The notes under the pieces: model-generated | Seen by the model: only the letters and a program-made list of their open reading frames with translations | The model's database searches: none | Told to the model about the DNA's origin: nothing | Virus record (IMG/VR): IMGVR_UViG_3300037067_009690 | Coordinates: 20,250 to 84,249 of that record | Length of the DNA: 64,000 nucleotides | Direction: 5' to 3' (one strand) | Source: a virus | Taxonomy: Duplodnaviria; Caudoviricetes | Part shown: positions 3,514 through 24,161 of the stretch, in pieces | Position numbering within the stretch: position 1 is the stretch's first letter | Layout: each line of letters begins with the position of its first letter | Translations under genes and position numbers: made by a program

Positions 3514-4016
3514 CCACTGAGCCGCCTGCCGCCCCACAGGACCCGTCCGAGCTGGTGGCCGTGTCCCTGGCCCGACTGGACGCCCTGGAGGCGCTCCACT
3601 ACCACGCGGCGTCCCTGCTCCGGGACGACGGGACGTCCACCGTGTCGATCGGTGCCCTGGCCGGGGATGTCGTGGCCGTGGCCGTCACGTCGTCCATGCG
3701 GCACGCGTGCGCGTGCACGCCCCGCCTGGTCCGTACGGCCGCTGATATCCGGGCCCTAGGCCAGGCTGTCGCCGACGGAGACCCCGACGCCGCCCCCGAC
3801 GGCGTGCCCATGGTGATACTGGTGGAGGACTGTGACGTGCCGCGTGTATGGACGGTGGTCGGCGTACTGCACGGTGACCCAGGTGACCCGCCGACTGTGT
3901 ATATGACGGAGTGCTGGGGTCGGAACACCCGGTGGCTCACTGACCGCGCCACTGACGATGGGATCGCCGGCCACGGCCCGTGGCGGGTTGCGTGGAGCAG
4001 GGGAGTGCAGTGGTGA
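3510..4016 (+). CDS. hypothetical protein
   Basis: GTGA-coupled ORF in operon. Confidence 0.6.
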   Translation: MTTEPPAAPQDPSELVAVSLARLDALEALHYHAASLLRDDGTSTVSIGALAGDVVAVAVTSSMRHACACTPRLVRTAADIRALGQAVADGDPDAAPDGVPMVILVEDCDVPRVWTVVGVLHGDPGDPPTVYMTECWGRNTRWLTDRATDDGIAGHGPWRVAWSRGVQW

Positions 4017-21250: not shown

Positions 21251-21639
21251 CGGGCCCATCCGGGTAGGTCTGGTGTCGCGGGGAGGCCATGCGCGGCGGG
21301 GTCGACGGGCGTGAGGCCGCCGTCGTCGTCGAGGAGCCACCATCCGGTGCCGAGCCACGCGGGGACGTCGGCGGGCTGGCGCGGGTCACGGAGGAGGATC
21401 CACCCGAGCGAGGCGGCACCCGGCCGGTCCTGATGCGCGGCCATGTGCAGCCGGTGGCACACATGCAGGCCGTTGCTGGCGACCCACGCCCCGGAGTGAC
21501 TGCGGTGGACCCGGTGCGACCAGTCCGTCGCCCGGTGCCCGCCGTGGACCTCACACACGCCACCAGACCGGGACCGGACCAGGGCACGCGCCCGCCGCTC
21601 AGCAGCCGCGACAACCGCCCGCCGGGCCACCAACGTCAC
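21247..21639 (-). CDS. HNH-family endonuclease (degenerate)
   Basis: RSGG.CE...HR..RSHSGAW..SNGL.VC...H...GW...P..VP..L...W.LLDDDG. Confidence 0.7.
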   Translation of the reverse strand: MTLVARRAVVAAAERRARALVRSRSGGVCEVHGGHRATDWSHRVHRSHSGAWVASNGLHVCHRLHMAAHQDRPGAASLGWILLRDPRQPADVPAWLGTGWWLLDDDGGLTPVDPAAHGLPATPDLPGWAR

Positions 21640-22010
21640 GGCTGGTCCCCCTGGTGGCCGCAGTGGCAGCCTTCGGCGCAGCAGGTGTCTTGGCGGTCGG
21701 TGTCGCCGTCGGTGTCGTGAAGGAAAGCTGCATGCGGGCAGCGCGGGGTGTTAGGGCATAGCCATGGAGAAGGCCACGAGGCGTCCTCCTGGTATCCGCG
21801 GGTGCGGTGGGCGGTGACGGCGTCCAGGCACGTATCCAGGGCCCCGCGGTGGTCGCCGGCGCCGCCGCTGGCTACGACCAGCGCACCGTTGCGGCACGCG
21901 TCCTGCCGGTCGGAGTCGGTGACCTCCCAGAACCACACCAGCCAGCCCGCGGCCATCTCACGCCACACGCGCCCGCGCACCGGATGCTCGGCGTTTGTTG
22001 TGTCAAGCAT
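21636..22010 (-). CDS. hypothetical protein
   Basis: ORF with Cys/His-rich C-terminus. Confidence 0.55.
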   Translation of the reverse strand: MLDTTNAEHPVRGRVWREMAAGWLVWFWEVTDSDRQDACRNGALVVASGGAGDHRGALDTCLDAVTAHRTRGYQEDASWPSPWLCPNTPRCPHAAFLHDTDGDTDRQDTCCAEGCHCGHQGDQP

Positions 22011-22025
22011 CTTTTTGTCTCACGT

Positions 22026-22101
22026 CTTTCGTGTGGATCCCCTGCCCTGCCCCGCCCGGCCAAGCCATGACTAGCCGCGCAGCGCCCAGCCACGCCATGC
22101 G
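22026..22101 (-). ncRNA. GGY-NN pentamer array unit C (putative guide RNA)
   Basis: CGCAT GGCGT GGCTG GGCGC TGCGC GGCTA GTCAT GGCTT GGCCG GGCGG GGCAG GGCAG plus tail GGGATCCACACGAAAG. Confidence 0.75.
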
Positions 22102-22104
22102 ACG

Positions 22105-22680
22105 TTATTGGCCCCCGATTTCACCGGTGTTCTCGTCAACGGTTTCCCCTGCAACCGTGACACGATCAGGCACACTAATACCCTGCGACTGTAGAGCAGC
22201 GACCAGGACATCGTATTTGTCGTCGACCTGGGTGACAGTTCTCCTGAGGTCAGCGATCTGGGTTTCATGCCGGTCAAGGACGGACGCCTGAAACACTAAG
22301 GCGTCAGTGAACGCGTCGATGCTCTTGCGTTGAGCGATGGATAGTTCGTTGCGGTCGACATGCGTGGTCGTCGCTACAGCTGACCGCATGCGGCGCCGGG
22401 CGCTTTTCTGGTAACCGCGGGCCTTAACTTCATGCTCGGATGCGTGGGCGATCTTGTATCCTACTCCGCGGACGGCTATGAGCATCCTGGATCGTTTGGT
22501 GAGGAGTTCTTGTCCGGCGCGTGCGATGGGGGTGCGTGATGCGCCTTGTTTCGCTGGGTTGTAGCCGAGGAGTTCGGTGAGGGTGTCGTAGGTGATGATG
22601 TCGCCTGGTTTAAGTTCTGCGGCGTGGTCGTATATTTCGCGCCACCTTGCGCGTGCCCCGGATGATTTAAATGGTGCCAC
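22105..22680 (-). CDS. winged-HTH-like DNA-binding protein with coiled coil (RAMP-associated)
   Basis: AAAGGAA RBS, GTG start; KPGDIITYDTL.ELLG...R..I.RA..EL...L.AVRGVGY. Confidence 0.75.
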   Translation of the reverse strand: MAPFKSSGARARWREIYDHAAELKPGDIITYDTLTELLGYNPAKQGASRTPIARAGQELLTKRSRMLIAVRGVGYKIAHASEHEVKARGYQKSARRRMRSAVATTTHVDRNELSIAQRKSIDAFTDALVFQASVLDRHETQIADLRRTVTQVDDKYDVLVAALQSQGISVPDRVTVAGETVDENTGEIGGQ

Positions 22681-22690
22681 GATGTGGTTC

Positions 22691-22756
22691 CTTTCGTGTG
22701 GATCCCCTGCCGAGCCTCGCCGTGCCATGCCATGGCGCGCCACGCCCCACCTCGCC
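22691..22756 (-). ncRNA. GGY-NN pentamer array unit B (putative guide RNA)
   Basis: GGCGA GGTGG GGCGT GGCGC GCCAT GGCAT GGCAC GGCGA GGCTC GGCAG plus tail GGGATCCACACGAAAG. Confidence 0.75.
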
Positions 22757-22757
22757 G

Positions 22758-22796
22758 TGCGATGGGCCGGAGTCGAACCGGCCATACGACCATCAC
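22758..22796 (-). ncRNA. tRNA-like minihelix (acceptor stem plus T arm)
   Basis: GTGATGG/CCATCGC 7-bp stem, GCCGG-TTCGACT-CCGGC T arm, discriminator A; no D or anticodon arm. Confidence 0.6.
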
Positions 22797-22809
22797 CGCA
22801 ACACACCCG

Positions 22810-23475
22810 TCAATCCTGATCCCAGTCTGCCGCCGAAATACCCTCGACAACAACAGGACCCAGATCAACAACACGCGCCCAGAATCGGCCATACCCGCCG
22901 CGCCTGAAATCACCGAGCCCAACGAACCGGCCCGCCCTGTCAGCGATGTCCACCAACTCATCGACATCAACAACAGTCTCATCGGACAGGAAATGGCACG
23001 ACAACCGCCACGACCGGAATATTGGCCTTACCCTGACGTTACGCGCTTGCCCGACTTTCACGGTCTGCCGAGACACGAAGTTGCTGTCTTCACACAGGAC
23101 TTCCGCAGTAGCCCCGACCGGATACCCGTCTGAGTCTTTTCTCGGCCACTTGAACCCGAGTCTACATGTGAAGTCGATGAGGGTGAGTCCCCGTTCGATT
23201 TTCATACCGGATTTCGTCATGCGCGCTCCCTCGGTGAGGGATTTCGCGACGTTCCTGCCCGGTAGGACCGGTGACCCGTTGTGGTCTACGTACAGTCCGG
23301 CCGCGTATTCCAGCCGGCCGATTTCTTCGTAGTCGCTGATAGTTTTCGTGCGTTTCCCGGATACTTTCTTGAATACCTTGGTTCGTTCGTCGAGCGGGTC
23401 GGCGAGCGTGTCGCAGTGCATGAGTAGTGGTGTCTTGCCTTTTATGTCGACTCGTACGTTACGCAATACGCCCAT
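22810..23475 (-). CDS. Cas7/RAMP-like protein (Vipr-like candidate)
   Basis: V.IKGKTPLLMH...ADPLD...K.SGKR.KT..D..EIGRLEY.AGLY...P.LP..N...TVKVGQARNVRVRPIF.SW...C-terminal Gly loop GRFVGLGDFRRGGYGRF. Confidence 0.75.
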   Translation of the reverse strand: MGVLRNVRVDIKGKTPLLMHCDTLADPLDERTKVFKKVSGKRTKTISDYEEIGRLEYAAGLYVDHNGSPVLPGRNVAKSLTEGARMTKSGMKIERGLTLIDFTCRLGFKWPRKDSDGYPVGATAEVLCEDSNFVSRQTVKVGQARNVRVRPIFRSWRLSCHFLSDETVVDVDELVDIADRAGRFVGLGDFRRGGYGRFWARVVDLGPVVVEGISAADWDQD

Positions 23476-23480
23476 CCCGT

Positions 23481-23546
23481 CTCTCGTGTGGATCCCCTGC
23501 CCTGCCTCGCCTCGCCAAGCCATGCCTGGCCACACCCTGCCCCGCA
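23481..23546 (-). ncRNA. GGY-NN pentamer array unit A (putative guide RNA)
   Basis: TGCGG GGCAG GGTGT GGCCA GGCAT GGCTT GGCGA GGCGA GGCAG GGCAG plus tail GGGATCCACACGAGAG. Confidence 0.75.
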
Positions 23547-23696
23547 TGCACATCATACGCGCGGATGCGGCTCGCCACGCGCAAGAAACGCGTGAACACC
23601 TAAATTAAGTTGCCGCCCCATGTAGCATTCTGGTCAATCAATGGCTTACCTTCGCTTATCGCGCAAACGGGTATGCCATCAGACGAAACAATCGCC

Positions 23697-24161
23697 TCAC
23701 GGCGCACCGCCGAGGCAGTCGGGGCACCAGCCTGCGACACGGCCCGTCCCAGGCACCGTGACACGGACACCCGCCAGAGCCGACCTCGCCACACCCGCCC
23801 GGTCAGCGACCGCCATGGACCGGACCACACCCGCCGCGGCGCACGGCGCGAGAGCCGCATGCACCAGGTCCGTCAGCTCCCACAGGCTGTCATCGCGGTC
23901 CACGCGGTGCCGGACATGCACCGCGCCCGCTGCGGTGACCACGGCGGCGCGATGCCGCCTGACGGCCTGCTCAGCGACAGTCACGACCTCCCGGACCAGG
24001 CCGTGGGAGTCGACGACCACACCGGCGACGCCCCCCGGGATGTCGGGCACCCACCACCAGCCCCACCCGGACACACCAAGGTCTGGGCCACGGTCCACGA
24101 CCACACCGGGGCCGTGACCCGGTAGGTCCAGGACCATCCCAGGCGCCACGGCCGGCGTCAC
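23697..24161 (-). CDS. hypothetical protein
   Basis: GTGA coupling. Confidence 0.5.
   Translation of the reverse strand: MTPAVAPGMVLDLPGHGPGVVVDRGPDLGVSGWGWWWVPDIPGGVAGVVVDSHGLVREVVTVAEQAVRRHRAAVVTAAGAVHVRHRVDRDDSLWELTDLVHAALAPCAAAGVVRSMAVADRAGVARSALAGVRVTVPGTGRVAGWCPDCLGGAP

Follow-up and report, generated by a model that had tools for sequence, protein, structure and literature searches.

A 42-base element encoded at positions 22758-22799 of the minus strand, made up of a T arm, an acceptor-type stem and a purine discriminator without CCA, lies between a RAMP gene and a guide tract of a phage VIPR cassette. Judged by comparison of its copies, this minihelix is a real and conserved tRNA-like RNA module of one VIPR clade. 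Its shape and position suggest that it probably acts as punctuation that is cut by host RNase P and/or RNase Z. The element was found in a window of 64,000 nucleotides, which is the whole stretch of DNA analysed and a 64-kb part of an IMG/VR virus record of 84,249 bp with 66% G+C.

VIPR systems were first described in 2026 and have been proposed as the ancestor of CRISPR RAMP effectors. They consist of the RAMP protein Vipr, an adjacent accessory gene, vap, that often encodes a DNA-binding protein, and vrRNAs flanking vipr that carry 9-16 GGY/NN repeats with an invariant 3' tail and whose variable NN bases read DNA with a one-base skip (bioRxiv 10.64898/2026.04.26.720920). The cassette in the window is a VIPR system on account of the Csm3-like fold of its RAMP, of Felixounavirus homologues whose loci carry GGT/NN arrays and of tracts that end in one shared tail. 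Its vipr gene (P0002, 221 aa; 22810-23475, minus strand) belongs to phrog_4652, and searches of Pfam and PADLOC returned no match for P0002 or for the product of the following gene, P0001. An AF2 model of P0002 based on 43 homologues had a pLDDT of 95.4, and its best PDB matches were Csm3 (Cas7) chains of type III complexes (Foldseek probability 1.0, E 5e-7, TM ~0.5). As modelled, P0002 is a stand-alone minimal RAMP of the Csm3/Cas7 kind, which agrees with the RAMP mRNA named in the preliminary description of this DNA, and the invariant residues G182, G186 and G196 near its C-terminus fit a G-rich loop. Homologues of Vipr were found in ~130 GenBank phages, including Felixounavirus phages of E. 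coli and Salmonella (31% identity, E 1e-23), the Gordonia phages MakoManhole and Trine and the Mycobacterium phage LittleE. A second gene of ~150-190 aa directly follows the vipr homologue in every case inspected. In the window this is vap (P0001, 192 aa; 22105-22683, minus strand), whose GTG start is backed by a 45%-identical homologue, the gene after vipr in locus L007, that aligns from residue 3; the MakoManhole counterpart of P0001 is annotated as a DNA-binding protein. Among metagenomic relatives, Vipr identity is 54% in L007 and 42% in L011, and both loci have four or five tracts downstream of vap. The non-coding DNA around vipr/vap pairs is strictly 5-periodic, the unit being NNGGC in phages of high G+C and NNGGT in VpaE1, a phage of E. 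coli.

Three guide tracts of ~10-12 NNGGY repeats each are present in the cassette, all on the vipr strand, and each ends in the same 14-nt tail, GGGGAUCCACACGA, which occurs three times in the genome and always on that strand. Unit A (vrRNA A, 23484-23543; tract 23499-23543, tail 23484-23497) precedes vipr and is without a minihelix, having instead a -10-like TATGAT at 23552-23557. This would be its promoter on our own reading of the letters, and a scan for consensus promoters called none at this unit. Unit B lies in the 126-nt minus-strand gap between P0002 upstream and P0001 downstream, which is also where the minihelix is located. In minus-strand 5'-to-3' order, the gap contains the 10 nt that follow the vipr stop codon, GCGGTG, AUGGUCGUAU, GGCCGG, UUCGACU, CCGGCC, CAUCGC and the discriminator A, followed by ~11 phased NNGGY pentamers, GGGGAUCCACACGA, a ribosome-binding site and the GTG start of P0001. 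The guide tract of unit B occupies 22708-22757 (~10-11 phased NNGGY pentamers) and its tail 22694-22707, directly before the vap ribosome-binding site and start. As the tract begins directly after the discriminator, the GGC tract that had been described as adjoining the minihelix was found as stated. Unit C (vrRNA C, 22029-22098; tract 22044-22098, tail 22029-22042) is also without a minihelix; it begins 4 nt past the vap stop codon and precedes an ORF of 124 aa (21636-22010).

The structure of the minihelix was established from its minimum free energy fold together with its relatives. The letters quoted earlier, namely GTGATGG and CCATCGC (7 bp with one G-U), GCCGG and CCGGC, TTCGACT, the A and the missing CCA, were all recovered on the minus strand. 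The register drawn through them was not upheld. Both the fold and all relatives pair the acceptor-type 5' strand GCGGTG (22794-22799) with CAUCGC (22759-22764), and the T stem is formed by GGCCGG (22778-22783) and CCGGCC (22765-22770). The geometry is accordingly 6+6, amounting to 12 stacked bp, in place of the 7+5 proposed before, and the linker is a conserved 10-nt strand, AUGGUCGUAU (22784-22793), in place of 7 nt. U22800 could add a seventh acceptor pair with A22758. The T loop UUCGACU (22771-22777) follows the T54-U55-C56-R57-A58 consensus of tRNA and is closed by a G:C pair, and its columns are invariant or nearly so in the family. The A at the discriminator position (22758) is followed by CGG, or by CGC in most relatives, and not by CCA; the predicted RNase Z cut lies directly 3' of this A. 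Across the family the acceptor and T stems stack to 11 bp (23 copies) or 12 bp (11 copies) ahead of the discriminator, split 5+6 or 6+6 as opposed to 7+5 in tRNA.

The linker, ATGGTCGTAT in DNA letters, is a conserved part of the element and not a neutral spacer, with a family-invariant GG at 22790-22791. The D loop of tRNA has the pattern A14-R15-Y16-G18-G19-Y20-A21, and the linker, R-N-Y-G-G-Y-A, resembles such a loop stripped of its stem. Based on this resemblance, the element probably keeps the elbow between T loop and D loop in the absence of a D stem, as the tRNA-like domain of tmRNA does. The earlier statement that there is no D arm has to be corrected for this D-loop-like linker with its invariant GG. 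ARAGORN reported no tRNA in either the window or the full 84-kb record. A search with Rfam models, those for tRNA and tmRNA included, gave no match to the minihelix at E values up to 10. A tRNA gene was considered as an identity for the element and ruled out, as there is no cloverleaf and only 10-11 nt separate the acceptor and T stems.

The stability of the fold is unremarkable when taken alone (z = -0.71 against shuffled sequences), and the case against chance consequently rests on comparison. A covariance model, R1, was built from 19 copies and run on both strands of the window and 87 loci, 508 kb in all; 80 of the 87 loci had been fetched from IMG/VR by Vipr similarity alone. Searching for related loci with a single protein as query returned nothing, and a narrower alignment as query worked. 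The R1 search resulted in 58 matches (51 distinct) in 21 loci, every one of the 58 on the vipr strand. There was exactly one match in the 64-kb window (22752-22804; 46 bits, E 5e-9 for the 508-kb search), and each of the other 57 adjoins a GGY/NN tract of a Vipr locus. The model passed over the genuine tRNA genes that some of the searched loci contain. Among the 80 Vipr loci from IMG/VR the minihelix is present in 19, and carriers also include the Gordonia phages Trine and MakoManhole and the Mycobacterium phage LittleE, which have three or four elements each. Each tract of L007 and L011 has in front of it a hairpin whose loop is UUCGAnU and whose flanks are conserved, and L040 holds up to eight copies in one locus. 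Copies are more alike within a locus than between loci.

Covariation in homologous cassettes, which the preliminary description had put forward as the observation that could refute it, was found in both stems. Pairing in the T stem holds for 99.3% of cells, both sides have changed in five of its six pairs, and the loop-closing G:C, which corresponds to G53:C61 of tRNA, is invariant in 51 of 51 distinct copies. The same T stem was returned by RNAalifold on an independent MAFFT alignment. Since the acceptor helix shifts by one position between copies, ungapped MAFFT and covariance-model alignments run out of register (55-63% paired) and understate it. The helix was for this reason scored copy by copy, as the best helix right after the T stem, with flanks re-paired between copies as the control. 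Its mean length was 5.3 bp compared to 3.6 +/- 0.16 bp for re-paired flanks, with no permutation above 4.07, and 26 different complementary strand pairs were seen. In a subset of 16 copies with the same geometry, four of five acceptor pairs covary and slid-register controls collapse; these copies were selected for having the helix, meaning that their 100% pairing arises partly by construction. The linker measures 10-11 nt, and its GG is invariant in alignment A6 and conserved to at least 90% in alignment A2. Of 50 copies, 46 have A (32) or G (14) as the discriminator; the next three bases are CGC in 26 copies and CCA in none.

A phased GG tract was found directly downstream in 36 of the 51 distinct copies, directly upstream in 32 and on both sides in 24, against a background of 3.9%. 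Arrays accordingly run minihelix, tract, minihelix, tract. Some copies have a gene on one side: in the window, L007, L011 and Trine the minihelix separates a gene from the first tract, and it follows the last tract ahead of vipr in LittleE and ahead of vap in Trine. The last MakoManhole copy ends its array with no tract after it, only a short U run. The earlier view of the minihelix as a 5' signal of arrays thus holds for tract B, which it directly precedes, but is too narrow, as copies also occur 3' of tracts and before genes. The distance to the guide is fixed, the minihelix being phase-locked 2-3 nt before the first repeat. It is not obligatory for every guide behind an ORF, since none intervenes between vap and unit C in the window, or between vap and the first tract behind it in LittleE and MakoManhole. 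In L008 the units are also without a minihelix, each having a TTGACA-17-TAGGTT promoter and a terminator hairpin at its end. The RNA start predicted after cleavage of a minihelix (5'-CGC or CGG, then NNGGY) resembles the promoter-driven start (5'-(Y)GC, then NNGGY), a likeness seen in few loci and given here as an observation with no statistic attached.

Other delimiters were seen in sister loci. L017 has a terminator and a TTGACA/TATAGA promoter, and L019, L033, L056 and L063 have conserved hairpin tails. In L037 and L038, spacers of 8-14 nt such as GTAGTAGAGC separate the tracts, which is perhaps the arrangement called staggered. The Vipr homologue gp091 and gp092 of VpaE1 (NC_027337) lie between GGT/NN arrays (L006:1990-2440 and 3590-3820), whose units are separated by another conserved hairpin (CATCACTTAAGAG...TTAAGTGATG) and a structured tail that is not tRNA-like.

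The proposal that the minihelix is processed by host enzymes draws on its demonstrated structure, conservation, covariation, strand, position between units and interchangeability with promoters. RNase P and tRNase Z need no more of a tRNA than an acceptor/T-arm minihelix as substrate, and precursors without CCA are the natural substrates of RNase Z. In the proposed sequence of events vipr, vrRNA B and vap would be read as one minus-strand transcript. Host RNase P would cut at the 5' edge of the minihelix, leaving the upstream RNA with a defined 3' end, and RNase Z, the 3' tRNA-processing endonuclease, would cut after the discriminator, thereby setting the 5' end of the downstream RNA. The vrRNA B released in this way would start with C-G-G/C, 2-3 nt ahead of the first full repeat, close to the start expected for those vrRNAs of the family that have their own promoter, and Vipr protomers would then coat the tract. 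The base after the discriminator is a conserved C, and C as the first letter of CCA disfavours RNase Z in some species. The exact RNase Z cut site is uncertain for this reason, and the conserved C may shift or weaken the cut.

Extended to the clade, which consists mostly of high-G+C phages, the proposal is that guides are matured by host tRNA enzymes and not by a Cas6-like protein or a ribozyme, forming natural tRNA-guide polycistrons in which the element also separates guides from vipr and vap mRNAs and from which excised minihelices may persist, possibly with CCA added. We lean towards this wider picture by a small measure. The replacement of a Cas6 by the minihelix, as suggested in the preliminary description, fits the comparative anatomy, that is, the punctuation of units, the exchange with promoters and the slot that ribozymes occupy in other types; unit C, which is without a minihelix, does not conform to it.

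The main alternative is that the minihelix is retained as a 5' or 3' cap, which would protect the vrRNA or the neighbouring mRNA from exonucleases, such as RNase J, the 5'-3' exonuclease of actinobacteria, or would stop growth of the Vipr filament. The element does abut tracts on either side, the vrRNA 3' end of the SUSP1 clade is capped by a structured pseudoknot in the VIPR literature, and the terminal MakoManhole copy, which ends its array ahead of a U run, also fits a role as 3' cap or terminator. Against this, many tracts have no minihelix on one or both sides (units A and C of the window, L008, and the last tracts of L007, L011 and LittleE), and because such tracts occur in the same loci the minihelix is dispensable for a working vrRNA. 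Copies are also placed between a gene and a tract or before genes, and the T loop, its G:C closing pair, the linker GG and the purine discriminator are conserved beyond the need of a generic hairpin. Retention as a cap is on balance unlikely, though it carries some weight. That the minihelix is instead a binding or nucleation site for Vipr or Vap, which would seed or register the filament or regulate downstream translation, appears quite improbable. Such a site would account for the resemblance of the linker R-N-Y-G-G-Y to one GGY/NN repeat and for the phase lock 2-3 nt before the first repeat, but it leaves the constraints on T loop and acceptor unexplained, as Vipr reads GGY. Furthermore, promoter units work without a minihelix in the published system and occur in the same loci, and some copies have no tract downstream.

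Two further readings were weighed as well. A DNA-level recombination joint of the attC type, serving the shuffling or acquisition of guide cassettes, would be consistent with modular tract units delimited by the minihelix and with the greater likeness of copies within than between loci. We regard it as very improbable, as 58 of 58 copies lie on the transcribed vipr strand, compensatory changes keep pairs of the RNA type, G-U included, letters specific to the tRNA loop are conserved, and the conserved two-gene module has no recombinase. The chance that the element is a dead fragment of a tRNA gene, an attP core derived from a host tRNA 3' end or a fortuitous hairpin is close to negligible. A T arm joined to a 3' acceptor strand does resemble the integration sites of elements that target tRNA genes, and the fold energy alone would allow chance, but the acceptor 5' strand is present too, both stems covary, and up to eight copies occur per locus (L040), always with VIPR tracts. 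The string of 25 nt covering T arm and acceptor had no exact match in 185,579 species genomes or in IMG/VR. The attP core from a host tRNA 3' end was rejected as an identity for the element, since this 25-mer is absent from genomes and IMG/VR and the element is multi-copy and tied to VIPR tracts.

Processing of the minihelix by host tRNA enzymes would be a third, host-dependent way of delimiting the vrRNAs of an already known system, if our reading of the sequences is right. In VIPR types I and V, hammerhead ribozymes are placed 'between adjacent vrRNA segments', as confirmed by sRNA-seq (bioRxiv 10.64898/2026.04.26.720920, figs S19-S20), and cutting of multi-guide transcripts is stated only for ribozyme-interspersed and staggered VIPR arrays. 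Both arrangements put a structured RNA, taken to define guide ends, into the same slot between GGY/NN units; the hammerhead cleaves itself, however, whereas the minihelix has no ribozyme core and would need host tRNA enzymes. No hammerhead reached Rfam gathering scores in the 80 loci of the Vipr clade to which the window belongs, and the equivalence of the two slots is therefore drawn from the published paper alone. Neither tRNA nor RNase P nor RNase Z is mentioned in the main texts of the three VIPR preprints. In full-text literature searches for natural tRNA-like punctuation of phage guide arrays, the only cases that came up were engineered tRNA-gRNA and mascRNA designs. In those designs, namely tRNA-gRNA arrays (PMC4982333) and sgRNAs released by mascRNA (bioRxiv 10.64898/2026.08.20.745814), guides alternate with tRNA or tRNA-like units for release by RNase P and RNase Z, as is proposed here. 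The engineered tRNA-gRNA arrays differ in being man-made and in using full tRNAs and Cas9 or Cas12 guides, while the minihelix arrays are natural and use a mini-element of 42 nt.

Several natural systems share features with the minihelix. Mitochondrial tRNA punctuation, the t-elements of plant mitochondria and mascRNA at the MALAT1 3' end are cases in which non-decoding tRNA shapes mark RNase P and RNase Z cuts. Like these, the minihelix is proposed to be a tRNA-shaped cut marker within a longer transcript, but they are eukaryotic or organellar and mostly cloverleaf, whereas the minihelix is a reduced phage element that serves a guide array. An acceptor stem and T arm with a single-stranded D loop carrying GG and no anticodon arm are found in the tRNA-like domain of tmRNA, in YrlA and in the skipping-rope relatives in Rfam. 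The minihelix has the same plan of acceptor, T arm and GG strand, and differs in having no G3:U70, CCA, SmpB or Rsr and in its context of VIPR arrays. The processing of pre-crRNA by Cas6 or Cas5d in class 1 CRISPR-Cas systems also yields unit-length guides for a Cas7-type filament from a multi-unit transcript. Unlike those systems, the minihelix cassette has no gene for a dedicated nuclease and no repeat hairpin bound by the RAMP, and the recognition element would be a tRNA mimic.

If the minihelix is cut by host RNase P and RNase Z, it would be a natural parallel to the tRNA-gRNA arrays engineered for genome editing, in a guide system able to do without a dedicated processing nuclease, and would offer a compact 42-nt processing module for guide multiplexing in actinobacteria. 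Three of its carriers, Trine, MakoManhole and LittleE, are cultured phages with laboratory hosts.

The comparison also bears on gene annotation. In Trine (MH271318) the CDS of gp40 (267 aa) starts inside the vrRNA array (L004:3088-3384); its first ~99 codons consist of three minihelices and two GGC/NN tracts, and homology to vap begins at residue 128. The annotation can thus be corrected in that the 5' part of gp40 is array DNA, and the true start is likely the ATG near L004:3385. In the window, Met19 is the first residue of Vipr in the public annotation (P0003, 203 aa; region 23422-23475). The ATG at 23475 is the likelier start, because homologues align from residues 3-6. The Vipr ORF also has an extra ~15-20 aa at its C-terminus that are absent in homologues. 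Three T-arm stretches with loops TTCAAAT and TTCGAAT lie upstream in the Vipr contig of L011 (L011:60-340) and may be ordinary phage tRNA genes; real tRNA genes are located near VIPR loci in L017, L044, L047 and L057/58.

At 21636-23557 of the window (minus strand) guides are interleaved with genes, in a manner not seen in the relatives, each tail leading into the ribosome-binding site and start of vipr, vap or the ORF of 124 aa. The guide tracts are here located in 5' UTRs, and binding of Vipr to them could regulate these genes too. The G+C content of the cassette (22000-23600) is 57-61% compared to 70-76% in the flanks, and this lower value suggests recent acquisition from a source of lower G+C. 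Similar DNA for 22000-24000 was not found among GenBank phages by blastn, and IMG/VR contained no exact match, read with a 1-nt skip, to the patterns of vrRNAs A and B. Two DNA runs that contain this stretch confirmed the assembly and had no variant at the minihelix. In the source groundwater metagenome a separate 180-nt contig of lower depth matches only the minihelix (22756-22799), with two differences, and is probably a copy of the minihelix in another element of the same sample.
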